A stretch of DNA of 64,000 nucleotides from Actinomycetota bacterium (GCA_018821365.1 JAHJML010000138.1:1744-65743); one strand, 5' to 3'; positions 14,017-60,058 are shown, numbered from the stretch's first letter. The notes: a model not told the origin generated them from the letters alone. Numbers and translations: made by a program.

Positions 14017-14058
14017 CGGCCGGCCAATTCTGCTGCTCCGTGGCGAGAGGGGCAATCC

Positions 14059-25998: not shown

Positions 25999-27231
25999 TC
26001 AGGCGGCGAAGACCTTCCTCATTGCCGCCAGCATGACGTCGATCTGCTCGTCGGTGATCACCAGCGGCGGGCACATCGACAGGTGGACCGGGGCGATCGG
26101 CCTCACGATGACGCCCTCCCCCAGGAGCGCGTCCCGGGCTTCCACCACGCTGCGCTCGGCCGGGAGCGAGATCCCCCACACCGCCCCTTCACCCCGCACA
26201 TCGGTGAGCAGGCCGTCCGATTGCATGGCCCGGAGACCGGCCTCCAGGCGGCCCCCGATCACCCGGGCGCGATCGAGCAGTCCCTCCCGCTCCTGGATCT
26301 CGATGGCCTTGAGGGCGGCCGCGCACGCCAACGGGTGCCCTGAGTAGGTGAAGCCGGTCCTCAGCAGGAACCCCTCGTTGGCTTCGAGTGCGGCTCGCAC
26401 CGCCGGCCCGACGATCACACCCGACAACGGGACGTACCCACTGGTCACCGCCTTCGCAAAGACGATCATGTCGGGCGTCACCCCGTAGAACTGACTGCCG
26501 AACCAGGTCCCGAGCCGCCCGAAACCGGTGATGACCTCGTCGTGGATCAGGTAGGCGCCGTAGGCATCGCACAGGTCCGCCAGATGCTCGAGATAGCCGG
26601 GCGGCGGCGGCCAGACGCCACCGGCACCCTGCAGCGGTTCGGTGATGATGGCGGCGATCTCGTCACCGTGGTCGGCGAACACCTGCTTCATGGCCTCTTC
26701 GTCATCGGCGCTCACGTTGATGACGCCGGGGACCAGCGATCCCCAGCCTTCCCGGTTGGGAGCGATGCCCTGCACCGAGGTCCCCCCGTAGTTGGTGCCG
26801 TGGTACCCGCGCTCGCGGCTGACGATGATCTGCCGCTCCGGGTGGCCCGCCTCGCGCTGGGCGATCCGCGCCAACTTCATGGCGGTGTCCACCGCCTCGG
26901 AACCGGAGGACCCCATGAACACCCTGGCATCCGCCAAGGGGGACAGTTCGACGATCCTGGCCGCCGCCTCCTCGGCCCTCGGGGTGGTGTACGGGTCGAA
27001 CGTGTGATAGGCCGCCAGGGTCCTCGCCTGCTCGGCGATCGCATCGGCCATCTCCTCCCGACCGTGGCCGATGTTGACGTACCACAGCGAAGCCATGCCG
27101 TCGATGTACTCCTTACCGGTGTCGTCCCAGACCACCGCCCCCTTTCCTCCGACGATCGAGAGGAAGTCCTGTTTGCGGGGCGGGGTGAATGGGTGCAAGA
27201 AGGGGCTGAGCATGGTGCCTCCCAGTGGCAC
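25999..27231 (-). CDS. class III (omega-type) PLP-dependent aminotransferase
   Basis: 410 aa (...SGSEAVDTAMKLAR..., DEVITGFGRLG, FAKAVTSGYVPL with the PLP lysine). Substrate not assignable. Confidence 0.85.
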   Translation of the reverse strand: MPLGGTMLSPFLHPFTPPRKQDFLSIVGGKGAVVWDDTGKEYIDGMASLWYVNIGHGREEMADAIAEQARTLAAYHTFDPYTTPRAEEAAARIVELSPLADARVFMGSSGSEAVDTAMKLARIAQREAGHPERQIIVSRERGYHGTNYGGTSVQGIAPNREGWGSLVPGVINVSADDEEAMKQVFADHGDEIAAIITEPLQGAGGVWPPPPGYLEHLADLCDAYGAYLIHDEVITGFGRLGTWFGSQFYGVTPDMIVFAKAVTSGYVPLSGVIVGPAVRAALEANEGFLLRTGFTYSGHPLACAAALKAIEIQEREGLLDRARVIGGRLEAGLRAMQSDGLLTDVRGEGAVWGISLPAERSVVEARDALLGEGVIVRPIAPVHLSMCPPLVITDEQIDVMLAAMRKVFAA

Positions 27232-29978: not shown

Positions 29979-31058
29979 ATGCCGAACATCGCCCTGATCC
30001 CCGGCGACGGAGTCGGGCCCGAGATCACCGACGAGGCCGTCCGCATCCTCGAGGCCGCCGCCCGGGTCTACGGCTTCCCGGTCGAGACCGAGATCTTCGA
30101 TTGGAGCTGCGACCGCTACCTGGCGCAGGGCGAGATGATGCCGGCGGACGCCCTCGAGACCCTGGCCGGTTTCGATGCGATCTTCCTGGGCTGCATCGGC
30201 GACGCCAACAAGGTCCCCGACCACGTCTCGCTGGAGATGCTGCTGGGGATCCGGGTGGGGTTCGACCAGTACGTCAACCTGCGGCCGATCCGCCTCTACC
30301 CCGGAGTCCCGACCCCGATCAGGACCGCCACCCCCGAGAGTGTCGACTTCGTGGTGATCCGCGAGAACACCGAAGGCGAGTACAGCCGTCAGGGCGGCTT
30401 CTTCCACCCCGACGCCGACGACGGATTCGCCATCCAGACCGGCATCTTCACCCGCAAGGGTTGCGAACGGGTGATCCGCTACGCCTTCGACCTGGCCGAG
30501 GAGCGCAAGGCCGCCGGGTACCAGGGCCGGGTGACCAACTGCACCAAGAGCAACGCCCTCAACTACTCGATGGTGTTCTGGGACAAGATCTACGCCGAGG
30601 TGGCCGAGGGCCATCCCGGCATCCAGCGCGACATGGCCCTGGTGGATGCGCTGACCATGTGGTTCGTCAAGAACCCCGAGTGGTTCGACGTGGTGGTCGC
30701 CTCCAACCTGTTCGGAGACATCATCACCGACCTGGGGGCGATGCTGCAGGGCGGCATGGGCTTGGCGGCCGGCGGCAACATCGACCCGGAGCGCCGCTAC
30801 CCGTCGATGTTCGAGCCGATCCACGGTTCGGCGCCCAAGTACACCGGCCAGCGGCGGGTCAACCCGATCGCCACCATCGAGGCGGTCCGGATGATGCTCG
30901 ACCACCTCGGCCAACCCGAGGCGGCCGCCGCCGTCGGGCGGGCCGTCGCCGGCACACTGGAGGCGGGCGAGATCCGCACCAGGGACATCGGGGGAACCAG
31001 CACGACCGACCAGGTGGGCGCAGAGGTGGCCCGCCGCATCACGGAGGAGCAGTCATGA
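29979..31058 (+). CDS. isocitrate/isopropylmalate dehydrogenase family enzyme, tartrate dehydrogenase/decarboxylase-like
   Basis: 359 aa ([48 protein letters not shown]), typical of beta-decarboxylating dehydrogenases and of TDH-like length. An AGGGA RBS lies upstream. Confidence 0.8.
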
Positions 31059-32074
31059 GCAAGATCAAGGTAGGCGTCGCCGGATACGGGGTGATCGGCC
31101 AGCGTCTCGCCGACGGGGTGGCACTGCAGGAGGACATGGAACTGGTCGGCGTCGCCGATGTCGCCCCCACCCTCCCGGTACGGGCCCTCGCCGAGAAGGG
31201 GATGCCGTACAAGATGTTCACGGCGGCTCCCGGTGCCGAGGCCGCCCTCACCGCCGCCGGCATCCCGGTCAGCGGCACCTTCGACGACCTGCTGGGCGAG
31301 GTCGACATCATGCTCGACGCCGCCCCGGGCGGGATCGGCGCCAAGAACAAGGAGAAGTACGTCGCCGCCGGAGTCAAGGGGGTGTTCCAGGGAGGTGAGG
31401 CCGGGTCGGTGGCCGACGTCTTCTTCCACGGCTACGCCAACTACGCCAGAGGGGTCGGCAAGGACTACCTCAAGCTGACCTCGTGCAACACCACGGGACT
31501 GATCCGGGCCGTCGACGCGCTCGACAAGGCGGTCGGGATCCACAAGGTGGCGATCACGATCATCCGCAGGATCGCCGACCCCGGCGACACCCACCGCGGC
31601 ATCGTCGACTCGCTGATGATGGAGGCGATCCCCAACCACCAGGCCGTCGACCTCATGGAGATCATGCCGCACGTCGACGCCACCGGGTTGCTGGTGCACA
31701 CCCCCATCACCCACGGCCACATCATCACCATCGTGGCGACCCCCAAGAAGGGCATCACCGACGACGAGGCGATCGACGTGTTCCGGGCCCACCCCCGGGT
31801 CCGCTCGGTCAGGATCGCCGACGGCTTCACCACCAACACGTCGCTGTTCAACTACGCCCGCTTCCTGGGCAAGCCGCGCGGTGACATGTACGAGATCGGC
31901 CTCTTCGAGGAGACGGTCGGCCACAGTGGGGACGACCTGATGTTCGCCATCAACATCCCCCAGGAGTCGGTGACCATCCCCGAGACCATCGACGCCGTCC
32001 GGGCGGCGATCCCGATGCAAGAGGACCAGGCCGAGGCGGTCGGGCTCACCAACCGGTACCTCGGCATGGCGTAG
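31055..32074 (+). CDS. type II (archaeal-type) glyceraldehyde-3-phosphate dehydrogenase
   Basis: 339 aa ([19 protein letters not shown] ... IMLDAAPGGIGAKNKEKY ... SCNTTGLIRAV ... IRRIADPGD) with block-by-block similarity to archaeal GAPDH, including the catalytic SCNTTGL cysteine motif. ATGA overlap with the upstream dehydrogenase. Confidence 0.88.
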   Translation: MSKIKVGVAGYGVIGQRLADGVALQEDMELVGVADVAPTLPVRALAEKGMPYKMFTAAPGAEAALTAAGIPVSGTFDDLLGEVDIMLDAAPGGIGAKNKEKYVAAGVKGVFQGGEAGSVADVFFHGYANYARGVGKDYLKLTSCNTTGLIRAVDALDKAVGIHKVAITIIRRIADPGDTHRGIVDSLMMEAIPNHQAVDLMEIMPHVDATGLLVHTPITHGHIITIVATPKKGITDDEAIDVFRAHPRVRSVRIADGFTTNTSLFNYARFLGKPRGDMYEIGLFEETVGHSGDDLMFAINIPQESVTIPETIDAVRAAIPMQEDQAEAVGLTNRYLGMA

Positions 32075-32076
32075 CG

Positions 32077-33303
32077 ATGTCGATCCGCTCCATCGACGAT
32101 CTCGAGGTCGGCGGCAAGCGGGTGCTGCTGCGGGTCGACATCAACTCACCGATCGACCCGTCCACCGGCCGGATCGCCGACGAGAACCGCATCGAGCAGA
32201 GCCTCCCCACGATTCGCGATCTGGCGGATCGGGGGGCCCGCCTGGTGATCATCTGCCATCAGGGCGACACCCTCGACTACCACAACCTGGTGGGGGTGGG
32301 CCAACACGCCGAGCGGCTCGCCGCCAAACTGGGACGGCCGGTCGGCTTCATCGACGACGTGGCCGGTCCGGCCGCCCGGGACCGGATCACCGCACTCGGC
32401 GACGGCGACATCCTGCTGCTCGACAACCTTCGCTACCTGACCGAAGAGGTGTCGACGTTCGAGCGCGACGTCAAGCTGAGCGTCGAGCAGATGGCCCACA
32501 CCTACCTGGTCCGCAGCCTGGCGCCGCTGTTCGACTTCTACGTCAACGACGCCTTTGCCGCCGCCCACCGGGCGTCGCCCTCGATGATCGGCTTCCAGCC
32601 GCTCCTCCCCTCGGCGGCGGGGCGGCTGCTGGAAGCCGAGGTCACTGCCATCACGAGCCTGATCGAGGACCCCCGCCGGCCTGCGGTCTTCCTGCTGGGG
32701 GGCCTCAAGGTGTCCGACGGCTTCTCGATGATGGGCAGGGTGCTCGCCGACGGCCTCGCCGACCGGGTGCTGACCTCCGGGGTCCTCGGGGAGATCTTCC
32801 TGACGGCGAGCGGAGTGGATCTCGGCGAGCCGACCACCGCCTTCATCGCCTCGCGCGACTTGACCCGGTATGTGGCGGTGGCGGCCGGCCTGCTGGCCGA
32901 TCACCCCGATCGCATCGCCCTGCCACTCGACGTGGCGGTGGTGGCCGACGGGGTGCGCCGGGAGCTCCCGGTGGCCGCCCTCCCGGCCGGCCGATTGATC
33001 GTGGACATCGGCGCCGCGACGATCTCCGCCTTCGAAGCCGAGATCGCCGCGGCGGGCACGGTGTTCGTGAACGGACCCGCCGGGGCGTACGAACAGGAGG
33101 GCGCCGACCTGGGGACGCGGCGGCTGTGGGCGGCGGTGGCCGCCACCGATGCCACCACACTCATCGGCGGAGGCGATACCGTGGCCAGCGCCCGCAAGTT
33201 CGTGGACACTGCGAAGATCGATCATGTGAGCACCGGCGGCGGAGCGCTGATCCGCTTCGTCAGCGGACAGCCCCTCCCGCTGCTGGAGGCCTTCGGAGTC
33301 TGA
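32077..33303 (+). CDS. pgk: phosphoglycerate kinase, archaeal-type
   Basis: 408 aa starting MSIRSIDDLEVGGKRVLLRVDINSPIDPSTGRIADENRI, with the archaeal PGK signature RVDINSPI. A C-terminal GGGDTV nucleotide domain is present. 2 nt gap after the GAPDH gene. Confidence 0.85.
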   Translation: MSIRSIDDLEVGGKRVLLRVDINSPIDPSTGRIADENRIEQSLPTIRDLADRGARLVIICHQGDTLDYHNLVGVGQHAERLAAKLGRPVGFIDDVAGPAARDRITALGDGDILLLDNLRYLTEEVSTFERDVKLSVEQMAHTYLVRSLAPLFDFYVNDAFAAAHRASPSMIGFQPLLPSAAGRLLEAEVTAITSLIEDPRRPAVFLLGGLKVSDGFSMMGRVLADGLADRVLTSGVLGEIFLTASGVDLGEPTTAFIASRDLTRYVAVAAGLLADHPDRIALPLDVAVVADGVRRELPVAALPAGRLIVDIGAATISAFEAEIAAAGTVFVNGPAGAYEQEGADLGTRRLWAAVAATDATTLIGGGDTVASARKFVDTAKIDHVSTGGGALIRFVSGQPLPLLEAFGV

Positions 33304-33319
33304 GGAAGGAGCGCGCCGC

Positions 33320-35161
33320 GTGACCATCGAGACCAGCGTGGAGGTCGTGGCCCCCACCGGGTTTTCGGTGAGCCGGTACTTCGTCGACCTGGCAGCCTCC
33401 GAGGTCCGCTGGGAACGGGCCGGCTGCGAGGACTGCGAGGACGCCCTCGGTGGGATCGCCAGAGCCACCAAGCTGCTGGGGCCGGTGCGGGTCGACGACC
33501 CGTATGCTCCCGATTCCCCCATCGTCATGAACCTCGGCCTGCTGAGCGGGACCAGGGTGATGACCGGGCTGCGCACCTTCTTCCACGGCTACTCGCCCCT
33601 CAAGACCTCCCTGTCCGGCAAGCCCGGCCTGATGTGGTCGGCGGGCAGCGGGCACTTCGGGACCAAGCTGCGGGGCCTCGGCATCGACGAGGTGGTCTTC
33701 ACGGGCAGGGCCACCCGGCCCACCCTGCTCAGGCTGAGCCCGGCCGCCGACCCGGAGGGAGCGGGGGGGCCGGCCCGCTTCGAGTTCCTCCCGGCGGCCG
33801 ACCTGGCCGGGCGGACGGTCAACGACCGCATCCAGGACCTGCACCGCCGCTATCCCGCGGCCCACTTCGCCGTCATCGGACCCGCCGGTGAGCACCCCGC
33901 ATCGGTGCGGTACGCCGCCATCGCCCTGTCGACCGACAACCAACTGAAGAGCGGCGACGCCAAGCCCCGCTACTGCGGCCGGGGCGGCTTCGGCGGGGTG
34001 CTCGGGTCCAAGAACCTGTTCGCCATCGCCGCCGATGGGCCCAACCCCGACGTGTCGAGCCGGGGACTGCGGGAGATCAACAAGGAGATCAACCTGGGCC
34101 AGGGCAGCGCCCGCTACCGGGACCTCCCCGACGACCGGGGAGGCACCTGGCGCACCATGAAGATGATGCAGGAGGCGGCCTCGCTCCCCGAGTACAACTT
34201 CGCCCCTACCGGCACCGACGTCTCCGTCCCGCTGCTGCGTCCCAGCGTCGAGGCGGGCCCCTTCGTCGTCAAGGCCGAGGGCTGCTACCTGTGCGGCATC
34301 AAGTGCCACAAGAACGTCTACGACCAGGAGCCCGGCGGGGAGGCGGGCCGCTTCCGGGCCAAGGTCGATTTCGAGCCGATCACCCTGCTGTCGTCCAACC
34401 TCGGCATCTTCGACCCCGATGACGGCCTCGACCTGATCGAGATGAGCGACGAACTGGGGATGGACTCGATCTCGCTGGGGGTGACGCTGGGGTACGCCAT
34501 GGAGTACAACCACCGCCACCCGGCGGACCCGATCGCCGACGGCATCTCCTACGGGGATGGTGCCGCCGTCAGGAAGGCCGTCGCCGCCGTCGCCGCCGGC
34601 GCATGCGCCGAACTGGGCCAGGGCGTCAAACGCTTGGCGGATGCCACCGGAGAGCCCGGCTACGCCATGCACTCCAAGGGCGTCGAGTATCCGGCCTACC
34701 AGCCGCAGACCAATCCGGGCTACCCCTGGGCGCTGGCCGGCGGGCACATGTCGATGCGGACCTTCTTCCTGATGGTGATCGAACGGGAGACCGGCCTCGA
34801 CTACTGGGTGGACGCCATCACCAACCGGGGACTGCTGTACCTGATGGACGACATCACCGGGCTCTGCAAGTTCACCAACGCAAGCGCCGATCTCGAAGCC
34901 GAGGCGATCAGGATCGCCGCCGGCCTCGACATCGATGCCGACGGACTGCTCGACGTCACCCGCCGCACCTTCCTGCGCGGCTACCTCGCCGAACGGGCCC
35001 AGGGTTTCGAGCCTGCCGACTACTCGCTCCCGGCCGAAGCCCACCAACCGGCGGCGGGGATGACCATGCCGCACTTCAGCACCCCGGAGTTCTTCGCGGC
35101 GCTGCGCGACCGGGTCAACGCCGCCTTCGACGAGCGGGCCGAGGCCGCCGGGCTGCTCTGA
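33320..35161 (+). CDS. aldehyde:ferredoxin oxidoreductase family protein (tungsto/molybdo-pterin, divergent; GAPOR/FOR-like candidate)
   Basis: 613 aa with AOR N-terminal blocks (ATKLLGPVRVDDPYAPDSPIVMNLGLLSGT...KSPLTG-like LKTSLSGKPG...SGHFGTKLRGLGIDEVVF). It has the [4Fe-4S] ligand motif C-x2-C-x3-C (CYLCGIKC) and the pterin-binding DELGMDSIS. Confidence 0.75.
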   Translation: MTIETSVEVVAPTGFSVSRYFVDLAASEVRWERAGCEDCEDALGGIARATKLLGPVRVDDPYAPDSPIVMNLGLLSGTRVMTGLRTFFHGYSPLKTSLSGKPGLMWSAGSGHFGTKLRGLGIDEVVFTGRATRPTLLRLSPAADPEGAGGPARFEFLPAADLAGRTVNDRIQDLHRRYPAAHFAVIGPAGEHPASVRYAAIALSTDNQLKSGDAKPRYCGRGGFGGVLGSKNLFAIAADGPNPDVSSRGLREINKEINLGQGSARYRDLPDDRGGTWRTMKMMQEAASLPEYNFAPTGTDVSVPLLRPSVEAGPFVVKAEGCYLCGIKCHKNVYDQEPGGEAGRFRAKVDFEPITLLSSNLGIFDPDDGLDLIEMSDELGMDSISLGVTLGYAMEYNHRHPADPIADGISYGDGAAVRKAVAAVAAGACAELGQGVKRLADATGEPGYAMHSKGVEYPAYQPQTNPGYPWALAGGHMSMRTFFLMVIERETGLDYWVDAITNRGLLYLMDDITGLCKFTNASADLEAEAIRIAAGLDIDADGLLDVTRRTFLRGYLAERAQGFEPADYSLPAEAHQPAAGMTMPHFSTPEFFAALRDRVNAAFDERAEAAGLL

Positions 35162-35170
35162 TCCGGGGCG

Positions 35171-36460
35171 TCAATCGATCCCGGCGATGGCCGCCGCGAT
35201 GATCTCACCGGCCCGATCGACCTCGGCAGCGGTCACCGTCAGCGGCGGAGCGATCCTGAGGACGTTCCCGTAGAGGCCGCCCTTCCCGATCAGCAGCGAC
35301 CTCGCCTTGCACGCCTCCGACAACCGGGCGGCCCGTGGCGCCGAGGGCGACAGCGTCCCCGGTTCGACCGTCTCGATCGCCTGCATCAAGCCCTTGCCCC
35401 GCACCTCGGCGATCCACTCGACGCCGGCGGCGGCCTCCTCGAGGTGGCCTCTGAGCCGGCGGCCCATCGCCAGGGCATTGTGCTGGAGGTCGTGCTCGTC
35501 GAGATACCGCAGGGTGGCGATGGCGGCCGCACACGACAGCGGGTTGCCCCCGAAGGTGGAGATCGAGTTGGCGGGCAGCGAGTCGATGATCTCGGCCCGC
35601 CCCACCACGCCGCCCAGGGCGACGCCGTTGCCCACCCCCTTGGCGAATGTGAGCAGGTCCGGAGTGACGCCGTGGGCCTGGTAGCCCCAGTAGTTCTCAC
35701 CGGTCCGTCCCCACCCGGTCTGCACCTCGTCGGAGACGAAGAGGATGCCGTGGTCGGCGAGGATCTTCTGGAAGGCGCCGAGCAGTCCATCCGGCGGGGT
35801 GGCAAAGCCGCCGACCCCCTGGATCGGCTCTGCGATGAAGCAGGCGACATCGCCCGAGGTCATCATGTCGATGACCTGCTCGAGGTCGGCGACCGAGGCC
35901 TCGATGTAGGCGTCGTCGTCGAGTCCCCGAAACGGCGTCCGCAGCGGGTAGCCGCCGTGGACGAAGTTGACGCTCAACCCGCTGACGCTGGTCGGCGACC
36001 AGGATCGATGCGAGGTGATGGCGATGGCGGTGAAGGAACGCCCGTGGTAGCTGTTGCGCAGCGCCAGCACCTGATTCGATCGCCGGTAGGTGGTCGCCAG
36101 CAGCAGGGCGGCGTCGTTGGCCTCGGTCCCCGAGGGGGTGAAGAAGACCTTGGCATCGGGGATGCCCGAGCGCGCGACGATCATCTCGGCCAACTCGATC
36201 ATCGGCTCGGAGAGGTACAGCGTCGAACTGTGGAGCAAGCGGGCGGCCTGCTCCCCGATGGCCCGGGTGATCTCGGGGACGTTGTGGCCGATCATCGTGG
36301 TGAGGATCCCCCCGAAGAAGTCCAGGTACTCGTTGCCCTCGACATCCCACACCGTGCGGCCCTCGCCGGCGGCGATGGCGATCGGTTCCTCGTAGTAGAC
36401 CGCCAGCCACGACGGCGCCACCTTCCGGTGCCGTTCCCGGAGTTCCCGATTCGTCGTCAT
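35171..36460 (-). CDS. class III PLP-dependent aminotransferase
   Basis: Start at MTTNRELRERH, with a GGAGG RBS upstream. It has FTPSGTEANDAAL, DEVQTGWGRTG and FAKGVGNG (PLP Lys). 4-aminobutyrate/omega-amino acid aminotransferase-like. Confidence 0.85.
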   Translation of the reverse strand: MTTNRELRERHRKVAPSWLAVYYEEPIAIAAGEGRTVWDVEGNEYLDFFGGILTTMIGHNVPEITRAIGEQAARLLHSSTLYLSEPMIELAEMIVARSGIPDAKVFFTPSGTEANDAALLLATTYRRSNQVLALRNSYHGRSFTAIAITSHRSWSPTSVSGLSVNFVHGGYPLRTPFRGLDDDAYIEASVADLEQVIDMMTSGDVACFIAEPIQGVGGFATPPDGLLGAFQKILADHGILFVSDEVQTGWGRTGENYWGYQAHGVTPDLLTFAKGVGNGVALGGVVGRAEIIDSLPANSISTFGGNPLSCAAAIATLRYLDEHDLQHNALAMGRRLRGHLEEAAAGVEWIAEVRGKGLMQAIETVEPGTLSPSAPRAARLSEACKARSLLIGKGGLYGNVLRIAPPLTVTAAEVDRAGEIIAAAIAGID

Positions 36461-36479
36461 CGTTCCTCCCAACGCATGG

Positions 36480-38450
36480 TCACCGCTCGTCCGTGATCGG
36501 GCCCGACCCTTCCTGGTCGTCGTCCATGACGAAGCCCATCCTCCGCAGGTGGGCGCGGACCTCCGCATCGGCCAGGATCTCGAAGAGCGCCCGCACCGCA
36601 GGGCGCTCCCGCCGGTCGTCGCGCACCAGCAGGTCGTAGCGCTCGTCCTGCACGAAGCGGAACTCCAGGCCCGCCCGGGTGGCGATGGTGTCGAGGGTCA
36701 TCCCCCAATCCGCCCTGCGCTGCTCGACGGCGGCCGCCACCCCGTGATGGGTCCTCACCTGGTGCAGGTAGCCGTCGGGGCGAGCGTCCCCCAGCAGGCG
36801 GTCGATGAGGACCCGGGTGCCGCTGCCGACGTTCCGGTTCACCATCCGCAGGCCGCCCGGCACTGCGCCTGCCAGGAAGGCGGCGGCATCCTCGCCCAAC
36901 CCGGCGTGCTTGGAGCGGAAGACGATGCCCTGTCGCCGCCGGTAGCCGGGTAGCAGCGACGCCCCCTCCGGCACGAAAGCCCGGTTGTACTCGCCGGTGG
37001 CCGGGTCCATCAGGTGGATCCCGGCGACGTCGCCCTCCCCCCTCCGCAATGCCGCCACCCCGCCCATCGAGCCCACCCAGACCGCCTTGACCCGGAACCC
37101 TCGCGAGGCGACCAGTCCCAGCAGGTGGTCGAATCCCTCGCAGTTGCTCCCGATCGCCGCCAGGTCGGCGGGCCGGACGTCGGGGTTGATCGGCCGTACG
37201 ACGACGGCCGCTCCCTCCTCCAGGTACTCGATGGCGGCCGGGATGCGGATGAACCCGTCCGCCCTGCCGAAGGCGGTGACGCTGCCCGAACCTGCCCCGA
37301 GGGGATAGGCGGCGGGGCCCTGCTGCCCCTCGACCAGGTCGACGAGCACGTAGTGGGTGCGGCCCGGCACCGAGTCGATCCGCATGGGGGTGATCGCGGC
37401 GATCTCGCCGGCCAACCCGTTGCCGAAGCCGGACAGCCGGCGCAGCAGGGGAGCGACGAACTCGTGGAAGGTGAAGACGGCAGAGGTGGGGAACCCCGGC
37501 AGGACCACCACCGGCCTCCCCGCCAGCACCGCCAGCAGGATCGGCTTGCCGGGTTTGAGCGCCACCCCGTGCACCAGCACCTCCGAGGCCGGGAGGCGGG
37601 AGGCCAACCGCTGCACCACCACGGCGTTGACGTCGCCGTCGCCCTTGGAAGTGCCGCCGGACAGCAGCACAGCATCGGCGGGATGGTCGCCGCCGATCAG
37701 AGCCGTGATCGCCTCCTCGACTCGCTGCTCGTCGTCGGGGACGATCCCGGCGGGGACCCCATCGCACCCGAGTTCGGCCACCGCATCCAGGAGGATCCGC
37801 TGGTTGGAGTCGTAGACCTCCCCGGCCGCGATAGGGCCGCCGGGGGGGACGATCTCGTCTCCCGTCGAGAGCACCGCCACCCGCGGCCTGCGGACCACCT
37901 CGATCTCTCCGACCCCAACCGCCGCCAGCACCCCGGTCTCCCGTGAGGTGAGGCGGGTGCCCCGCCGCACCACGACGTCGCCCCGGCCGATGTCCGATCC
38001 CGCAAAGGTGAGGTTCCCTCCGGGCGCCACCGGGCGGGACACCTCCACCCGTTTCCCGGCGAGATGGGTGTCCTCCACCATGACCACTGCGTCGGCCCCC
38101 CGGGGGACGACGGCGCCGGTGGCGATCGGCACCGCCCGTCCCGGTCCCACCTCGAACCCGGGGGCGGGGCGGTCGCCGGCGGCCAGCGGCGGCCCGAGCA
38201 GCGTGAGCACGACCGGGGCAAGCTCCTCGGCCCCGGCGGTGTCGGTGGCGCGCACTGCAAAGCCGTCCATGTTGCTGCGATCGAACCCCGGGACGTCCAC
38301 GGCGGCGGCGACGTCGGCAGCCAGCACCCGGCCCAGGGCGGCATCGAGGGCGACGGTCTCGACGGCGGGCGCCAGATGAGCACACGCCTCCTCGAAGCGC
38401 CGCCGGGCCTCCGCCTCGTCCACCACGTCGAGGAACTGGCGCTGTCTCAT
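36480..38450 (-). CDS. molybdopterin molybdo-/tungsto-transferase MoeA fused to a C-terminal periplasmic-binding-protein-like (COG1910 molybdate/tungstate-binding) domain
   Basis: The N-terminal ~400 aa is MoeA-like (FDRSNMDGFAV ... GGTSKGDGD ... VLPGFPTSAV). The C-terminal ~230 aa is a PBP type 2-like domain. ATGA overlap with the upstream MoaD-MoeA gene. Confidence 0.8.
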   Translation of the reverse strand: MRQRQFLDVVDEAEARRRFEEACAHLAPAVETVALDAALGRVLAADVAAAVDVPGFDRSNMDGFAVRATDTAGAEELAPVVLTLLGPPLAAGDRPAPGFEVGPGRAVPIATGAVVPRGADAVVMVEDTHLAGKRVEVSRPVAPGGNLTFAGSDIGRGDVVVRRGTRLTSRETGVLAAVGVGEIEVVRRPRVAVLSTGDEIVPPGGPIAAGEVYDSNQRILLDAVAELGCDGVPAGIVPDDEQRVEEAITALIGGDHPADAVLLSGGTSKGDGDVNAVVVQRLASRLPASEVLVHGVALKPGKPILLAVLAGRPVVVLPGFPTSAVFTFHEFVAPLLRRLSGFGNGLAGEIAAITPMRIDSVPGRTHYVLVDLVEGQQGPAAYPLGAGSGSVTAFGRADGFIRIPAAIEYLEEGAAVVVRPINPDVRPADLAAIGSNCEGFDHLLGLVASRGFRVKAVWVGSMGGVAALRRGEGDVAGIHLMDPATGEYNRAFVPEGASLLPGYRRRQGIVFRSKHAGLGEDAAAFLAGAVPGGLRMVNRNVGSGTRVLIDRLLGDARPDGYLHQVRTHHGVAAAVEQRRADWGMTLDTIATRAGLEFRFVQDERYDLLVRDDRRERPAVRALFEILADAEVRAHLRRMGFVMDDDQEGSGPITDER

Positions 38451-39952
38451 CCGGCTCCCCCGTACAGCCCGACCTCCACCTCGGCGCCCTCGGCGAACCC
38501 CTCTGAGCCCGCCGGAACGATGACGAACCCGTCGGCCCTGGTCACCGAGGACAGCACCGACGCCCCCCCGATCGCCAGTGGTTCCACCGCGCCGTCGCGG
38601 ATCAGGACCCGGGCGTAGTCGGTGCGCCCGATCCGGGAGACGAGCCGCTTGGACAACGGCAGCCGCAGTCTGCGATGGGGCCAGGCAGGGCTGCGGCCCC
38701 CCAACACCCGGATGACCGGTCCTGCGAAGAACTCATAGGCGACCAGGCAGGAGACCGGGTTGCCCGGGAGCAGCAGCACCGGCGCCCCCCCGATCCTTCC
38801 GATCCCGGTCGGAGACGACGGCCGCATCGCCACCCCGTGGATCTGCAGTTCACCCAACTCGGCCACCAGCCGCGGGGTGTGATCCTCCTGCCCCACCGAC
38901 ACCGCCCCTGCGGTGACGATCACATCGGCACCGGGGCGCTGCAGTGCCTCCCGCATCGGGCCGGCGCCATCAGGGAGTCGGACGACCTCGGCGACCACGC
39001 CGCCGTCGCGCCCGACGAGCGCCGCCAGCATCGGGGAGTTGCTGTCGACGATCCTGGTCCCGACCGGAGCCGCCCCGGGGGCCAACAACTCGTCGCCCGA
39101 CACGATCACCCGCACCAGGGGGCGGCGGTGGACCGGCACCGTCGCCCGCCCGATGGCGGCCAGCAGGCCGAGGTCCTGGGGCAGCAACATCCGCCCGGCA
39201 CCCAGTACCTCAGTACCGGCGACCACGTCCTCCCCGATCCTCCCCACGTTGCGGCCGGGGGCGACCGGGGCCTTCACCATCACCAGGCCGCCGTCCTCTG
39301 CGGCGTCCTCGGCCCGTAGCACGGCATCGGCGCCCTCCGGCAGCGGGGCCCCGGTCATGATCCGCACCGCGGCGCCCGATGCGACCTCCGGGACCTCGGA
39401 GTCGCCCGGCATCGAGGCCCCGGCCACCGCCAGGGCGATCGGGGCGTAGGGAGTGGCGCCGAATGTGTCATCGGCGACCACCGCGTAGCCGTCCATGGTC
39501 GATCTGCGGAAGGAAGGCAGGTCGACGGTGCTGATGATCGCCCCGCCGCTCACCCGGTTGGCGGCATCCGCCAGGGCCACCTCTTCGGCGGCCAGGGGAG
39601 CCACCCCGGAGAGGGCGGCCGCCAGCGCATCTTCGACCGTCGCCCGCTCCCGGAACCCGATCATCCGCACGTCGTCGTGGCCGCCCCCGGCGATGCTCAC
39701 CAGCACGGTCACCAGGTCGGTGGCGGCCACCGCGGTCGATGCGACATCCTCTCGGTCGATCCGGCGCTCCCCGACGAACACGGCGAGGTGGGGGCGCAGC
39801 ATGCCTCGCTCGTCCACCAGGCGCTCGGTCAGATCGGGGTGGGCGGCGCAGGCCGCCGCGACGACCTCGGCGACGGTCTCCCCCTCCACCACGATCCGAT
39901 CGTGCTCGGCGGCGTAGCGCCGGAGTGCCGAGGGGATGCGGACGGTGACCAC
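38447..39952 (-). CDS. MoaD-like ubiquitin-fold domain (ending in Gly-Gly) fused in-frame to a second MoeA paralogue
   Basis: The first ~90 aa (MVTVRIPSALRRYAAE...LAVFVGERRI...DLVTVLVSIAGG) has MoaD/ThiS length and pattern, with a C-terminal GG. It is followed without a stop by a MoeA domain (RRSTMDGYAV ... AGAVSVGQED ... LLPGNPVSCLV). Confidence 0.7.
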   Translation of the reverse strand: MVTVRIPSALRRYAAEHDRIVVEGETVAEVVAAACAAHPDLTERLVDERGMLRPHLAVFVGERRIDREDVASTAVAATDLVTVLVSIAGGGHDDVRMIGFRERATVEDALAAALSGVAPLAAEEVALADAANRVSGGAIISTVDLPSFRRSTMDGYAVVADDTFGATPYAPIALAVAGASMPGDSEVPEVASGAAVRIMTGAPLPEGADAVLRAEDAAEDGGLVMVKAPVAPGRNVGRIGEDVVAGTEVLGAGRMLLPQDLGLLAAIGRATVPVHRRPLVRVIVSGDELLAPGAAPVGTRIVDSNSPMLAALVGRDGGVVAEVVRLPDGAGPMREALQRPGADVIVTAGAVSVGQEDHTPRLVAELGELQIHGVAMRPSSPTGIGRIGGAPVLLLPGNPVSCLVAYEFFAGPVIRVLGGRSPAWPHRRLRLPLSKRLVSRIGRTDYARVLIRDGAVEPLAIGGASVLSSVTRADGFVIVPAGSEGFAEGAEVEVGLYGGAG

Positions 39953-40032
39953 GAGTCTCTCCCTAGCGGCCGGGGCGGCGATCGATCACCGCGCGCCGGC
40001 CCCGGCTGCCGCAACGACCGTACCCGGCACGA

Positions 40033-41994
40033 TCACACCCCGATCTCATCGGCGATCCACGCCAGCCCCAATCCCTCCAGGGTCTCCCGGGTGGGGCTGC
40101 CGGTGTCGAGGTCCCACCCGGCCATGCGGTGGTACTCGTCGAGGGCCGCCGCCAACTCGGCCTCGTCGATCGACACCCCGTCGCTCATCCCGCCCTGGAG
40201 GGGCTCGTCGAAGAGCCGGCGCGGCAGCGTGTCGCTCTCCCGGGTCAGGCCTTCCCGGGCGTTGAAGGCCCGCAGCATGTTGAGGCGCCGCGCCCCGATC
40301 TCCTGGAGGCCGTCCACAGTGGTCTGGACACCGGTCACCGCCGTCACCACCCCGGCCAACTCCTCCATGCCCATCAGCTCCCAGGCGGGGCCGTACACGA
40401 ACTGACAGACGTTGACGGTGTCCATCGCCGAGTAGGCGTACTGGGTCCGCAGGGCGAACTCCACCTTCTGTCGATTCAGCACCATCGGATCCTGCGGCTC
40501 GGTGAGCCCGAGGCTCGCCATCCGCCTGCCGTACTTGTCGGGGCTGGTTTCGATGGTCTCCGGCTCGTACCCCGGGTCGTGCTCGCTGGATTGGTGGTCG
40601 GCGCCGAAGGGGTTGACCGCATAGACCAGTGCCAGGGACCGTTTCACGTGCGGCATGTGGGCGGGCAGTTCGGTGCCCTTCACCGTCATCGCGTAGGCGC
40701 CGGCGCCGTTGCCGATGGATGCCGCCGCCCGGGCCGATCCTTCGGCGAGCACGTCCCCAAAGCCCTCTCGCTCCAGGGTGGCCTCCAGCATCCGGATCAT
40801 GGCCGGGGCGTCACCCCAGGCCAGCTCGATCCCCCCGGTGTCCTTCGCCGTGATCACACCGCGCTCGAAGCACTCGATGGCAAAGGCCATCGTTGCGCCG
40901 GCGGCGATGGTGTCCACTCCGTACTCGTTGCAGAGTTGGTTGGCGTAGGAGACGGCGCCCAGGTCGTCGATGTCGCAATACGATCCGAACACCGAGGTCG
41001 TCTCGTACTCGGGGCCGCCCGACGCCGGGTCGATCGGGCGCCCCTCCCACTCGGATTCGACCACCCGCTTGCAGCGGATGGCGCACGAGAAGCAGGTGTC
41101 CCGGCCGGTCTTCATCTGGGTGCCCTCGGCGGCCCCCCGCAGGAACTCGTCGAACAATCGGGGGCCCGAGATGGCGGCAGCCCGCGCCTCGGGCATGGCG
41201 CCGCTGGTCCAGTTCCGGGTGGGGAGACCCCCGACGGCGCTCTGACTCTCCAGGATGTCGATGGTCCCGTACTGGGCGAGGCCGACGATGTCCTCGTCCT
41301 CCCTGACCCCGACCAGCGAGGCCTGCATGATGGCGCGGAGGCCCTCGGGATCGGCCAGGTCGAGCTTCTTCTTGCCGCCCCGCACCACAATCGCCTTGAG
41401 GTTCTTGCTCCCCATCACGGCGCCCATCCCGGTGCGGCCGTGGGCCCGGTTCGCCATGTTCATGATGGCGGCGAAGCGCACCTGCTTCTCACCGGCCGGC
41501 CCGATCTGGGCGATCTGGACCCGGGTGTCGTCGAGTTCCTCCTGCAGCATCCGGTCGACCCGGCGGGTGCGCTTGCCCCACAGATGGGCGGCCAGTCGCA
41601 GCTCGGCCTCCCCTTGATGGATCCACAGGTAGACCGGCTCCGGCGAGGCGCCCCGGATCACGACGGCGTCGAACCCGGCGAACTTGAGCTCGGCGGGCCA
41701 GAACCCGCCCGCCTGGCTGTCGCCGGCCCCACCGGTGAGCGGCGACTTGGCAACGGCGGTGCAGCGGCTCTGTCCGGCGATGGCGGCCCCGGTCACGCCC
41801 GACAGCGCCAGGGTCAGGGTGTTCTCCGGTCCCAGCGGGTCCGCCCCCGCCGGGGTGTGCTTGAACAGGTAGTAGAGGCCCAGCGCACTCCCTCCCACGT
41901 AGGTGCGGTAGAACTCCTCCGAGGGCTCTTCCACGGCGATCTGGTGGGTGGTCAAATCGACGTGGAGTATCTTGCCGGCGTATCCGTAGAGCAT
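40033..41994 (-). CDS. tungsten/molybdenum-containing aldehyde:ferredoxin oxidoreductase (AOR)
   Basis: Start at MLYGYAGKILHVDLTT (AOR N-terminal consensus); an alternative upstream ATG lies at 42024. It has KSPLTGGAGDSQAGGFW, the [4Fe-4S] C-x2-C-x3-C motif (CFSCAIRC) and the pterin-binding CNEYGVDTIAAG, and is canonical in length. Confidence 0.9.
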   Translation of the reverse strand: MLYGYAGKILHVDLTTHQIAVEEPSEEFYRTYVGGSALGLYYLFKHTPAGADPLGPENTLTLALSGVTGAAIAGQSRCTAVAKSPLTGGAGDSQAGGFWPAELKFAGFDAVVIRGASPEPVYLWIHQGEAELRLAAHLWGKRTRRVDRMLQEELDDTRVQIAQIGPAGEKQVRFAAIMNMANRAHGRTGMGAVMGSKNLKAIVVRGGKKKLDLADPEGLRAIMQASLVGVREDEDIVGLAQYGTIDILESQSAVGGLPTRNWTSGAMPEARAAAISGPRLFDEFLRGAAEGTQMKTGRDTCFSCAIRCKRVVESEWEGRPIDPASGGPEYETTSVFGSYCDIDDLGAVSYANQLCNEYGVDTIAAGATMAFAIECFERGVITAKDTGGIELAWGDAPAMIRMLEATLEREGFGDVLAEGSARAAASIGNGAGAYAMTVKGTELPAHMPHVKRSLALVYAVNPFGADHQSSEHDPGYEPETIETSPDKYGRRMASLGLTEPQDPMVLNRQKVEFALRTQYAYSAMDTVNVCQFVYGPAWELMGMEELAGVVTAVTGVQTTVDGLQEIGARRLNMLRAFNAREGLTRESDTLPRRLFDEPLQGGMSDGVSIDEAELAAALDEYHRMAGWDLDTGSPTRETLEGLGLAWIADEIGV

Positions 41995-42102
41995 GCCCAA
42001 CCCCCGTTGCCTATTGCCCCGCATCCTATCGGCCGGGCCGGCGACCGCTCCCCTCCGGCGGGTTCGGTTTGGAAAGGACTTCGCCTCCGAGCCAACGAAT
42101 CG

Positions 42103-42948
42103 TCAGCCGACGGCGATCAGGCCGAGGCCGATCCCCGCCAGTGCCAGACCCCCGAGTTGGATGCGGTTGAGCCGCTCGTCGAGCACCATCCTGGCCAGGA
42201 CCACCGTGCCGGCCGGGTAGAGGGATGAGACCAACAGCACCAGCGACACCAGGCCCGGTTCGTGGAGGGCGGCCAGCAGGAGGATGTTGGCGACCATGTC
42301 GGCGGCCCCCACCGTCAGGGCGACCCCGAGGACCGGGCCGGACACCAGCAGTCGGTGGCCCCTGACCAGCGCCACCGCACCGATGACCGGCAACGAGGCC
42401 ATCCGGGCCCCCACCAGCGGCCAGATGCCCGAGGCATCGCCGGTCCGAGAGATCAGGATGCCGAACAACCCGAACAGCACGCCGGCCAGGCTGCCGAGCA
42501 CCACCGCTCGCCGTACCGTCCCGGGAGCGTCCTCGTCGCCGTCTCCCGCCATACCGATCAACAGGATCGCCGGCAGCGCCATCGCCACCCCGACCCAGGC
42601 CAGAGTCGCCGGCCGCTCGCCGATCGCCACGCCGAACACCACCGGCAATGCGGCCCCGAGCAGGGCGGCGGCGGGAGCCGACACCGAGAACCGGGTGGTC
42701 GCCATGGCGTGGTACAGGATCACCAATCCCCCGCCTCCGGTGGCCCCGGCGGCCGCTCCCCATAGGAAGTCCGGGATCCCAGGCCCCCCCTGCCCCCACC
42801 ACGGGGCAACCGCCAGCACCACCGCCAACCCGGCGAGGTGGGCGGTGACGACGACCGAGACCGCCGGGGCCCGGCGGGAGGCGAGGCCGCCGACGAAATC
42901 GGCTCCGCCGAAGGCGAGAGCCGAGAGAGAGGCGAGGAACAGGGCCAT
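42103..42948 (-). CDS. EamA/DMT superfamily transporter
   Basis: 281 aa with 10 predicted TM helices and two EamA-like repeats. Confidence 0.75.
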   Translation of the reverse strand: MALFLASLSALAFGGADFVGGLASRRAPAVSVVVTAHLAGLAVVLAVAPWWGQGGPGIPDFLWGAAAGATGGGGLVILYHAMATTRFSVSAPAAALLGAALPVVFGVAIGERPATLAWVGVAMALPAILLIGMAGDGDEDAPGTVRRAVVLGSLAGVLFGLFGILISRTGDASGIWPLVGARMASLPVIGAVALVRGHRLLVSGPVLGVALTVGAADMVANILLLAALHEPGLVSLVLLVSSLYPAGTVVLARMVLDERLNRIQLGGLALAGIGLGLIAVG

Positions 42949-42978
42949 GTGAGCGATCAGGGTACGCCGGGGCCGGCT

Positions 42979-44571
<1,593 letters not shown>

Positions 44572-58608: not shown

Positions 58609-58750
58609 CCGTCTCCCGGTGGCATCGGACCGCTGCGCATTCGTTAGGGTTCCCTCTGGCGGACTGCCGCGCCGCGTGCCGGCGGCCGCCGCGAAGTCGA
58701 AACGCCCTCCACGCGCCGCGCCGCGTCGAGGATGGAGAAGGAGCACCTGC

Positions 58751-60058
58751 ATGATCGGCGCCGACGCCGTCCACGACACCCTCCGCCGATATCAACTGGC
58801 GGACGGATATCCCCTCGTGCTCGACCTGGAGCAATCCAGGGGTGTCTGGATGCAGGATGCCGTGTCGGGGAAGCGGTATCTGGATGCGTTCTCCTTCTTC
58901 GCCTCGTGGCCGATGGGATATCGCCATCCGATGCTCGAGGATCCGGGCTTCCAGCAGGAGTTGCTGAGGGCGGCCACCACCAAGGTCGCCAACAGCGACA
59001 TCTACACCGTCGAGATGGCTCGCTTCGTGGACGCATTCGGATCCAGGGTGACCCCGCCCGGCTTCCCCCATCACTTCTGGATCTCCGGCGGGGCGCTGGC
59101 GGTGGAGAACGCCCTCAAGACGGCCTTCGACTGGAAGGCCCGCAAACTGGGCCGCACCTCGTTCTCCGACCCGGTCGACGACTTGGTGATCCTCCACTTC
59201 CGCCAGGCCTTCCACGGCCGCAGCGGTTACACCTTGAGCCTCACCAACACCCTCCCCGACAAGATCGGCCTGTTCCCCAAGTTCGACTGGCCCCGCGTCC
59301 ACAACCCGGCCATCGAGTTCGATCTCGAAGGGAACATCGCCAACGACATCGAGGCCGAGGAGGCCAGGGCAGTGGCCGAGATCGAGGCCGCCTTCGCCCG
59401 CCACGGCGACAAGATCGCCGCCATCATCATCGAACCCATGCAGGGCGAGGGCGGGGACAACTACTTCCGAGGTGAGTTCCTCGCCTCATTGCGGCGCTTC
59501 GCCGACGAGGGCGAGGCCTTGCTGATCTTCGACGAGGTGCAGACCGGCTTCTTCGGATCCGGGCGGCCATGGATGTGGCAGCACCACGGAATCGCCCCCG
59601 ACATCGTCGCCTTCGGCAAAAAGACCCAGATCTGCGGCATCTACGCCTCAGATCGCATCGACGAAGTCGCCGACAACGTGTTCGCCAGGGCGAGCCGCAT
59701 CAACAGCACCTGGGGCGGCAACCTGGCCGACATGGTGCGGTGCCGGCGCTTCATCGAGATCATCGAAGCGGAAGACCTCGGCAATCACATCGCCACGATG
59801 GGTGGGAGACTGCTGGCCGGGCTCAGGACCATGGCGAAGGACACCGGCAAGTTCACGAGCCCGCGGGGGATGGGATCGCTGGTCGCCGTGACACTCGAGA
59901 CCACCGAGGCCCGCAAGGCGATGCTCGACCGGATGTTTGCCAACGAGACCCTGGCGCTGCCGTCGGGCCCCCGGGCCATCCGGTTCCGTCTCCCGTTCGT
60001 CATCCAACCCGATGAGATCGACGAACTGCTGACGAGGGTCGAAGCCAGCCTCGGCTGA
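58751..60058 (+). CDS. L-lysine 6-aminotransferase (class III aminotransferase, LAT-like)
   Basis: 435 aa (MIGADAVHDTLRRYQLADGYPLVLDL ...) with similarity to lysine epsilon-aminotransferases. It has the PLP Lys in FGKKTQICG and DEVQTGF. A GGAGAAGGAG RBS lies upstream. Confidence 0.75.
   Translation: MIGADAVHDTLRRYQLADGYPLVLDLEQSRGVWMQDAVSGKRYLDAFSFFASWPMGYRHPMLEDPGFQQELLRAATTKVANSDIYTVEMARFVDAFGSRVTPPGFPHHFWISGGALAVENALKTAFDWKARKLGRTSFSDPVDDLVILHFRQAFHGRSGYTLSLTNTLPDKIGLFPKFDWPRVHNPAIEFDLEGNIANDIEAEEARAVAEIEAAFARHGDKIAAIIIEPMQGEGGDNYFRGEFLASLRRFADEGEALLIFDEVQTGFFGSGRPWMWQHHGIAPDIVAFGKKTQICGIYASDRIDEVADNVFARASRINSTWGGNLADMVRCRRFIEIIEAEDLGNHIATMGGRLLAGLRTMAKDTGKFTSPRGMGSLVAVTLETTEARKAMLDRMFANETLALPSGPRAIRFRLPFVIQPDEIDELLTRVEASLG

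Follow-up and report, generated by a model that had tools for sequence, protein, structure and literature searches.

How could a ubiquitin-like sulfur carrier, which needs a free glycine carboxylate at its C-terminus, work when its Gly-Gly (GG) lies within a longer polypeptide? The question is raised by a 64-kb stretch of DNA from an Acidimicrobiia-like bacterium of the Actinomycetota (about 70% G+C; hereafter the window), in which an open reading frame (ORF) of 501 residues joins an N-terminal ubiquitin-like (Ubl) domain of the MoaD/ThiS type to MoeA, the metal insertase of the molybdenum-cofactor (Moco) pathway, beside a gene of the aldehyde:ferredoxin oxidoreductase (AOR) family. This MoaD(GG)-MoeA fusion is a genuine, widespread and apparently undescribed form of linear Ubl pro-proteins and of AOR-linked MoaD. 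By analogy with the studied linear fusions, we consider it somewhat better than an even chance (roughly 0.55) that the surrounding cassette is a tungsten-cofactor maturation unit attached to AOR, and that its 501-residue product is a pro-protein cut after G90, which would release an AOR-linked sulfur carrier and MoeA. By position in the window, the fusion gene is composed of the following parts.

38447-39952, minus strand: first paralogue, the Ubl-MoeA fusion ORF, 501 aa, with a GTG start (ORF map).
39683-39952, minus strand: sulfur-carrier beta-grasp domain of the ThiS/MoaD/CysO type, residues 1-90 (profile comparison, AlphaFold2 and Foldseek).
39683-39688, minus strand: codons GGG GGC of Gly89-Gly90, with the predicted cleavage site after G90 (direct reading).
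39674-39682, minus strand: linker G91-H92-D93, predicted to be disordered, from the diglycine to the first conserved MoeA residue (AlphaFold2 confidence).
38450-39673, minus strand: MoeA module of the first paralogue, residues 94-501, from the motif D-V-R-M-x-G-F (Pfam; the stop codon is at 38447-38449).
38810-38824, minus strand: R377-P-S-S-P381 loop of the first paralogue (placed by aligning it with 1uz5 and E. coli MoeA).
38447-38450, minus strand: ATGA stop/start overlap joining both MoeA genes (direct reading; the first ORF ends GGATGA).

Direct reading of the junction gave S-I-A-G89-G90-G91-H-D-D-V-R-M97-I-G-F-R-E-R, without a stop and with the frame continuing into MoeA. An N-terminal MoaD-like domain with an internal GG is joined here directly to an enzyme of the Moco pathway, and the gene product itself lacks the free C-terminal glycine carboxylate of sulfur carriers. 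A sulfur-carrier role would need processing, as an earlier note made from the DNA alone (hereafter the sequence-only reading) had argued. The gene has an ordinary start and composition: the GTG at 39952 is preceded, at a distance of 5 nt, by the Shine-Dalgarno-like GGGAGAG, the N-terminus MVTVRIP agrees with the starts of homologues, and the G+C content at third codon positions (GC3) is 0.90, a usual value for coding sequence in the window.

In single-sequence searches, the ThiS model (PF02597) matched residues 4-90 at E = 1.7e-3 and 19.3 bits, below its cutoff of 22.5, and the NCBIfam models SAMP1 (39.1 versus 60 bits; 8e-10) and moaD_arch (19.3 versus 49.5) also stayed below theirs; many homologues have a precomputed PF02597 match. 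Given the weak ThiS score, the N-domain was checked further by profile comparison, AlphaFold2 (AF2) modelling and Foldseek. A profile of 32 N-domains matched, in the PDB, the CysO proteins of Amycolatopsis (4n6e_B, 4.5e-16) and M. tuberculosis (3dwg_C, 2.2e-14), followed by a Thermus MoaD-related protein (8e-10), SAMP1 (about 1e-9) and Haloferax MoaD (2e-7). These matches to solved carriers run end to end, and position 90 lands on their C-terminal GG. The AF2 model of residues 1-96 (pLDDT, a predicted score on the local distance difference test, of 89.5) is a five-stranded beta-grasp with the strand and helix order of MoaD; searched with this model, Foldseek returned CysO at template-modelling (TM) scores of 0.80-0.87, then SAMP1, MoaD, Urm1 and ThiS. 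The N-domain is a ThiS/MoaD/CysO-type Ubl domain nearest to CysO. The sequence-only reading had proposed a MoaD/ThiS ubiquitin fold with a GG near residue 90 and had placed the diglycine where we read it. Its domain calls also held in the profile scan: the MoeA and PBP_like domains exceed their gathering scores, and for ThiS the profile level was decisive.

CysO (M. tuberculosis Rv1335; Amycolatopsis 4N6E) matches the N-domain best in both sequence and structure, over its full length and with the GG aligned. It is a free-standing protein whose partners are CysM and Mec+, or BexX, whereas the context here is MoeA and AOR, with no CysM or Mec+ homologue in the window. The nearest free-standing relatives of the Ubl domain are proteins of 89-92 aa that end at the GG; the genomic context of five of them (P0133, P0135, P0137, P0142 and P0145) was uninformative, all lying on contigs shorter than 2 kb. 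Other architectures with an internal GG occur among the Ubl relatives (P0143, P0164, P0194, P0220 and P0151), namely tandem Ubl-GG-Ubl-GG, Ubl-GG-MoeB/ThiF-like, ThiF-like with a C-terminal Ubl, and Ubl-GG with an unrelated domain of about 350 aa.

Homologues among the 5.8 billion proteins searched form more than 120 clusters, a lower bound, at 59-96% identity; nearly all are of about 500 aa and cover the whole query. Identity in the domain spans 37-63% across the members. Scanning GTDB with a single genome for each species yielded 76 loci, of which 64 belong to this MoeA subfamily; all ORFs of the loci were searched with the Ubl profile. The 64 are classified as follows; a further 4 of the 64 are cut by a contig end and were left out of the fused and unfused classes.

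33 of 64 loci: fused; mostly Acidimicrobiia, with L059 from Planctomycetota and L014 titled Candidatus Sulfomarinibacteraceae.
1 of 64 loci: fused but frameshifted (L037).
About 24 of 64 loci: orthologous MoeA, 60-69% identical, that lacks a Ubl within 8 kb, in Acidimicrobiia.
2 of 64 loci: informative intermediates (L058 and L069).

In the frameshifted copy (L037:4745-9263), Ubl residues 1-77 lie in another frame than the rest, owing to a frameshift or an assembly error in that metagenome-assembled genome (MAG). All fused examples found are bacterial, and a 2024 survey of MoeA proteins makes no mention of a MoaD or ubiquitin-like fusion (doi 10.1101/2024.07.23.604723); the label "archaeal-style", which the sequence-only reading had given to the MoaD-MoeA fusion, is not supported. 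Phrase searches for a MoaD-MoeA fusion found no description in the literature collection searched.

The diglycine is strongly conserved among the 116 aligned fused homologues. G89 is Gly in 115/116 and G90 in 109/116; the following residue is A/S/G/T/V in 113/116, being Ala in 80, and D94, R96, M97, G99, F100 and R103 are invariant. At the codon level, we compared 34 distinct fused junction sequences (33 genome loci and the window). The Gly codons GGC/GGT/GGA/GGG are used 16/9/6/3 times at G89 and 21/6/4/3 times at G90, and the codons of the D, V and R past the GG also vary synonymously. Since each of the two positions draws on all four Gly codons, the constraint on the GG is exerted at the protein level, rather than on an RNA signal or an internal ribosome-binding site; for the same reason, together with the varying D, V and R codons, an internal Shine-Dalgarno sequence formed by the GG codons was rejected. 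The linker from the GG to the first conserved MoeA residue has 2 residues in 26 of the 34 junctions (range 1-8). In the full-length AF2 model (pLDDT 89.4), residues 88-93 are the only ones between the modules that fall below a pLDDT of 50.

The GG is absent in 8 of the 116 members, 5 of which form one clade. In this clade, about half of the 14 best-conserved Ubl positions are gone, and the MoeA part still matches the family consensus at 96-98%. As judged from these alignments, the pattern fits a Ubl function that depends on the GG and is separable from MoeA.

Comparison of loci shows how the fusion arose. The unfused moeA genes start at an ATG or GTG 5-8 codons ahead of D-[VI]-R-M-[RK]-G-F, for example MSPPEDIRMRGF. 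Because unfused orthologues carry this motif so close to their starts, DVRMRGF, including M97, is the native N-terminal segment of the MoeA subfamily and serves neither as a junction signal nor as a concealed start. The idea that M97 is a start codon kept inside the fused gene was likewise considered and rejected, as the unfused orthologues begin 5-8 codons upstream of D[VI]RM and retain that Met. The same 24 or so species with an orthologous MoeA that lacks the Ubl, and that starts 5-8 residues before DVRM, indicate that the Ubl is a separable module and not part of the MoeA fold. In L058 (Planctomycetia), a separate carrier gene ends A-E-G-G-TGA, and its stop overlaps the moeA ATG (GGATGA), followed by M-S-S-G-D-V-R-M-R-G-F; this split form is the ancestral state. 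In L069 (Myxococcota), a GG-ended carrier gene with its own stop is followed by an AOR-family gene, MoeA and MoeA-PBP. On the evidence of the split and free-carrier loci, the fusion arose by loss of the stop at a GG-TGA/ATG overlap between a free carrier gene and moeA. Of the lost stop codon that the sequence-only reading had raised, the evolutionary version is borne out by L058, whereas a missed stop in sequencing or assembly was rejected, because the junction recurs across more than 120 clusters and in the genomes of 33 species.

The domain also seems to have been lost again. In four Acidimicrobiaceae loci, L035 (4224-4263), L040 (2890-2950), L047 and L061, the unfused moeA is preceded by a vestige reading "...IGGAEDVRM" or "...SGGTDDVRM"; a Ubl domain is not detectable there, and hardly any space is left past the AOR1 stop. 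From their sequences, these loci look like secondary deletions of the carrier domain from a fused ancestor.

The fusion gene does not stand alone. The ORF map shows four minus-strand ORFs in series, AOR1, the 501-aa ORF, a 656-aa ORF and a class-III aminotransferase, all with the codon-position G+C pattern of real genes, and a second AOR gene converges on them. The remaining features are listed below.

40033-42024, minus strand: AOR1, AOR family, 663 aa, first gene of the cassette (Pfam AFOR_N 248 bits, AFOR_C 373 bits).
39953-40032, minus strand: 80-nt intergenic spacer with the GGGAGAG ribosome-binding-like site ahead of the GTG start (direct reading).
36480-38450, minus strand: second paralogue, the MoeA-PBP ORF, 656 aa (ORF map).
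37176-38450, minus strand: MoeA core of the second paralogue, residues 1-425 (MoeA_N 147.7, MoCF_biosynth 100.4, MoeA_C 47.1 bits).
36573-37103, minus strand: PBP_like (PF12727) domain, C-terminal on the second MoeA, residues 450-626 (Pfam E = 1.2e-42; the ORF ends at 36480).
35171 to about 36460, minus strand: class-III aminotransferase between MoeA-PBP and AOR2 (Pfam match to Aminotran_3 of 297 bits, starting at residue 62 in the long ORF).
33320-35161, plus strand: AOR2, the second and more divergent gene of the AOR family, 613 aa, running towards the cassette (AFOR_C 138, AFOR_N 114 bits).

Both AOR genes carry the AFOR_N and AFOR_C domains and the CxxCxxxC motif of the tungsten-type AOR family, the Fe-S motif reading C-F-S-C-A-I-R-C in AOR1 and C-Y-L-C-G-I-K-C in AOR2. 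The Ubl coding sequence begins 80 nt past the AOR1 stop on the same strand, so that a MoaD-like coding sequence adjoins an AOR gene. The likely start of the aminotransferase is M37 of its longest ORF, 19 nt past the MoeA-PBP stop, and it is probably the last gene of the cassette's transcription unit; in relatives it lies outside the conserved cassette. The sequence-only reading had correctly seen two MoeA genes with an ATGA overlap between two AOR genes, and had omitted the aminotransferase before AOR2.

The cassette is well kept among relatives. In every one of the 64 loci that reaches far enough, the pair is present, with MoeA-PBP directly downstream of the first MoeA, and the 4-nt ATGA overlap recurs in L002-L005. 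Most related loci have an AOR1 orthologue upstream of the pair. An AOR2 orthologue adjoins MoeA-PBP in most fused loci, and a downstream AOR2 is mainly confined to these.

In the first protein, MoeA_N, MoCF_biosynth and MoeA_C cover residues 105-494, far over their Pfam gathering scores, and the second protein carries the same three domains plus PBP_like (PBP, periplasmic-binding protein), also over the gathering scores. With 683.7 bits, the second protein clears the cutoff of the NCBIfam model PRK14498 (534 bits), whereas the first paralogue falls under all NCBIfam MoeA equivalog cutoffs (best, PRK14498, 329 versus 534; PRK10680, 277 versus 440). The solved structures nearest to the first MoeA are those of Pyrococcus (1xi8, 1wu2 and 1uz5), followed by E. 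coli MoeA. The PBP_like domain had no significant match to PDB sequences.

The motifs MDGYA, IMTGAP, GEDV, SGDEL, DSN, PGNP and GRTD of the first paralogue are invariant in its family. Its active-site loop differs: the first MoeA reads M-R-P-S-[SA]-P-T-G, as against I-K275-P-G-K279-P-F in E. coli and I-Q-P-G-K-P-T in Pyrococcus horikoshii. This MRPS[SA]P loop, with a few RPASP variants, is common to the whole MoeA subfamily, fused, split and unfused alike, and KPGKP is retained in the PBP-fused partner. The difference could mean a division of labour between the two MoeA paralogues, or a heterodimer of them.

A tandem of this kind is already described and is putatively tungsten-specific. According to the 2024 survey, archaea and some bacteria have a contiguous MoeA pair, in which MoeA1 bears a PBP-like domain over the active site; MoeA1-PBP co-occurs with TupA, and a role in tungsten insertion was proposed (doi 10.1101/2024.07.23.604723). 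The window agrees in having two adjacent MoeA genes, one of them with a C-terminal PBP_like domain, an arrangement kept in related loci, and in the nearness of the first paralogue to Pyrococcus MoeA structures; it differs in lacking TupA, the reported co-occurring gene, and the likeness is one of architecture and structure matches. The sequence-only reading was right to call the MoeA-PBP fusion archaeal in type with a putative tungsten link, since this is the MoeA1 type of that survey. Its further statement that duplicated MoeA is a hallmark of tungsten users matches a published hypothesis, but is not an established rule; specialisation of a MoeA paralogue for tungsten has experimental support in Methylorubrum (PMC13197769).

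The genomic setting resembles that of AOR-linked MoaD. Iyer, Burroughs and Aravind (2006) described MoaD strictly adjacent to AOR, with MoeA, MoeB and MoaE nearby, as a tungsten-cofactor neighbourhood, and listed MoaD-MoaE and AOR-MoaD fusions (the latter C-terminal on AOR, in Azoarcus); MoaD-MoeA is not among them (PMC1779556). In the AOR operon of Aromatoleum, two MoaD-like genes, aorD and aorE, are taken as maturation factors (PMC6365974). Here too, a MoaD-like gene adjoins AOR with MoeA nearby, and L069 has exactly that layout with a free GG terminus. However, the described MoaD is free-standing or on the AOR C-terminus, whereas in the window it is N-terminal on MoeA, with no MoeB or MoaE gene.

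Two linear MoaD fusions have been studied. MoaX of M. tuberculosis (MoaD-MoaE) gains activity only once a protease, unidentified so far, has cut it between Gly82 and Ser83, a step that needs Gly81 (PMC4326299). In Deinococcus, the MoaD-MoaE fusion DR2607 is cut by the JAMM protease DR0402, and SAMP1 fusions of the linear kind are substrates of HvJAMM1 (PMC8832034). MoaX and DR2607 of Deinococcus radiodurans share with the present protein an N-terminal MoaD-type Ubl, an internal GG and the next pathway protein directly after it; MoaX also has a small residue after the GG (Ser, compared with mostly Ala or Ser here). In both of them cleavage after the GG is required for activity, whereas we infer it here. 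They differ in their partner, which is MoaE, the direct partner of the carrier, rather than MoeA, which acts two steps downstream, and in that the domain here is nearer to CysO than to MoaD.

On this basis a putative model for the cassette can be outlined. The translationally coupled, archaeal-type pair would provide a MoeA2-like protein and then a MoeA1-like protein with its C-terminal oxyanion-binding PBP_like domain. A peptidase encoded elsewhere (JAMM/MPN+ or a MoaX-type protease) would cut past Gly90 in the disordered linker, yielding a carrier of about 9.5 kDa with a free Gly-Gly carboxylate and a MoeA. The N-terminus of the latter would be (G)HDDVRM here and A/S-E/D-DVRM in the majority of relatives, about equal in length to the MxxxxD[VI]RM with which unfused orthologues begin. 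Afterwards, a MoeB/MoeZ-type enzyme would adenylate and thiocarboxylate the freed carrier, which would give sulfur for the molybdopterin of the AOR tungsten cofactor. The fusion may chiefly secure co-expression and 1:1 stoichiometry.

Cleavage after G90 is favoured because a sulfur carrier needs a free glycine carboxylate, because the split and free relatives have a free GG terminus, because the GG is kept where a plain linker would drift, and because both studied MoaD linear fusions are activated by cleavage. The small residue after the GG and the disordered 88-93 linker also count in its favour. An N-to-O or N-to-S acyl shift at GG-Ser/Thr/Cys, by which the protein would cleave itself, was rejected as a general mechanism, the next residue being Ala in most members.

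Several observations weigh against this model. The Pfam scan of about 46 window ORFs revealed no JAMM/Mec+, MoeB/ThiF/MoeZ or MoaE gene, and among the Pfam-labelled called genes within 10 kb either side of the cassettes in L002-L005 there was no JAMM, MoeB/MoeZ or MoaE. Many orthologous cassettes exist without a linked Ubl, which makes the domain accessory. The linker is very short, and cleavage itself is a prediction. The sulfur acceptor of the domain is uncertain, because it is nearer to CysO than to canonical MoaD. The link between GG loss and Ubl decay comes essentially from one clade and one strong independent event, so that its nominal p = 4e-5 is overstated. The sequence-only reading had also pointed to a JAMM protease and to tup/wtp tungstate transporters; in the window neither was found. 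No Tup/Wtp/Mod binding protein or ABC transporter is present among its scanned ORFs, where the PBP_like domain of MoeA-PBP is the only periplasmic-binding-type match, and no Tup/Wtp/Mod binding protein lies within the same distance in L002-L005.

Next to release of a carrier, the most serious alternative, which we hold to be possible though clearly less probable, is that the Ubl stays attached as a docking or regulatory module. It would recruit MoaE or molybdopterin (MPT) synthase, a MoeB-like E1 or the apo-AOR to the insertase, the labile molybdopterin would be channelled, and the GG would serve only as a flexible hinge. The lack of a protease gene in the window and the surveyed neighbourhoods speaks for such tethering, as do the permanently fused N-terminal Ubl domains known, for example, on ThiF (PMC1779556), and the relatives P0194, P0220 and P0151, fused to MoeB/ThiF-like or unrelated domains. 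The MogA-MoeA fusions gephyrin and Cnx1 are precedents for channelling, and like the present protein they join MoeA to another protein of the Moco pathway; their partner, however, is MogA in a permanent fusion, whereas here it is a sulfur carrier that works only with a free C-terminus. A hinge, moreover, needs no exact Gly-Gly at the position of the carrier terminus, yet 94-99% of members keep the GG despite the divergence of the domain. The split L058 and the free GG-ended relatives show the ancestral module to be a free carrier, and the analogous fused MoaX is inactive until cut.

A released domain might instead act as a SAMP-like modifier of MoeA, AOR or other targets, or as a donor of non-dithiolene sulfur such as a terminal sulfido on tungsten; we regard this as unlikely. 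SAMP1 is the next-best match after CysO, the domain has more in common with CysO than with E. coli-type MoaD, and Haloferax SAMP1 modifies MoaE while also supporting Moco synthesis (PMC8832034). Nevertheless, the locus gives no sign of a conjugation apparatus, and the genomic link to MoeA and AOR matches the AOR-linked MoaD class tied to cofactor synthesis.

Also improbable is direct delivery, by which the fusion would do more than secure co-expression: the carrier, released or swinging on its GG tail, would hand sulfur directly to the MoeA pair, and regulated cleavage would license assembly of the tungsten cofactor. The carrier could, for example, join MPT synthase and insertase in a channelled complex dedicated to the tungsten cofactor of AOR, or provide thiotungstate or a sulfido ligand when the metal is inserted. 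If true, this would be a new tie between ubiquitin-like sulfur chemistry and metal insertion.

An artefact of sequencing or assembly (a missed stop or frameshift) or a decaying, functionless pseudo-domain is highly improbable: one base change at an ATGA-type overlap suffices to fuse the genes, the L037 copy is frameshifted and a few lineages lost the GG or the entire domain, but the same in-frame junction comes from independent clusters and species-level genomes of different projects, the beta-grasp model is confident with conserved core positions, and the GC3 is typical of coding sequence.

Several further features of the locus and its relatives were recorded. In about half of the fused loci, three overlapping small genes lie between AOR1 and Ubl-MoeA (L005:8263-9992; also L003, L004, L006-L011, L016, L018, L022, L024, L026, L028, L029 and L062). 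One product resembles a lipoprotein (about 150 aa), another (about 243 aa) begins GIDDTD..GGTG and matches TiaS_TCKD weakly, under the cutoff (E = 6.6e-4), and one is a membrane protein (about 193 aa). A tblastn search of the window found none of the three genes, and the unfused loci lack them too; a role in transport or maturation is conceivable.

On the plus strand (31001-35161), a GAPDH-like gene with weak Gp_dh_C and Gp_dh_N matches and pgk (32077-33303) are followed 17 nt on by AOR2; the AOR2 orthologues of L002, L003 and L005 do not adjoin pgk. The window holds three class-III aminotransferase paralogues, at 25999-27231 (minus), 35171-36460 (minus) and 58619-60058 (plus), and L005 also has an Aminotran_3 gene a few kb from its cassette. 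Three long ORFs with coding-type GC3, at 6710-8902 (minus, 730 aa), 11221-14055 (minus, 944 aa) and 61940-63964 (plus, 674 aa), have no Pfam match at E <= 1e-3. An Rfam scan of the window, including the molybdenum- and tungsten-cofactor (Moco/Tuco) riboswitch, gave no family at gathering scores, and a promoter and terminator consensus scan of 34900-43200 gave none exceeding the shuffle expectation.

The source names of the fused clusters, which come from Acidimicrobiia and Actinobacteria MAGs, are generic, "MoaD/ThiS family protein" or "molybdopterin-binding protein", and are a warning for annotation, as neither name covers both halves. With the fusion, MoeA would join the few bacterial proteins made as linear ubiquitin-like pro-proteins. 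How the building of tungsten and molybdenum cofactors differs is poorly defined, and this cassette joins AOR, a MoeA pair with an oxyanion-binding domain and a dedicated Ubl carrier in one compact operon, with fused, split and carrier-less versions as ready-made natural controls. The fusion offers a clean substrate for finding the processing peptidase and a tractable handle on maturation specific to the tungsten cofactor.

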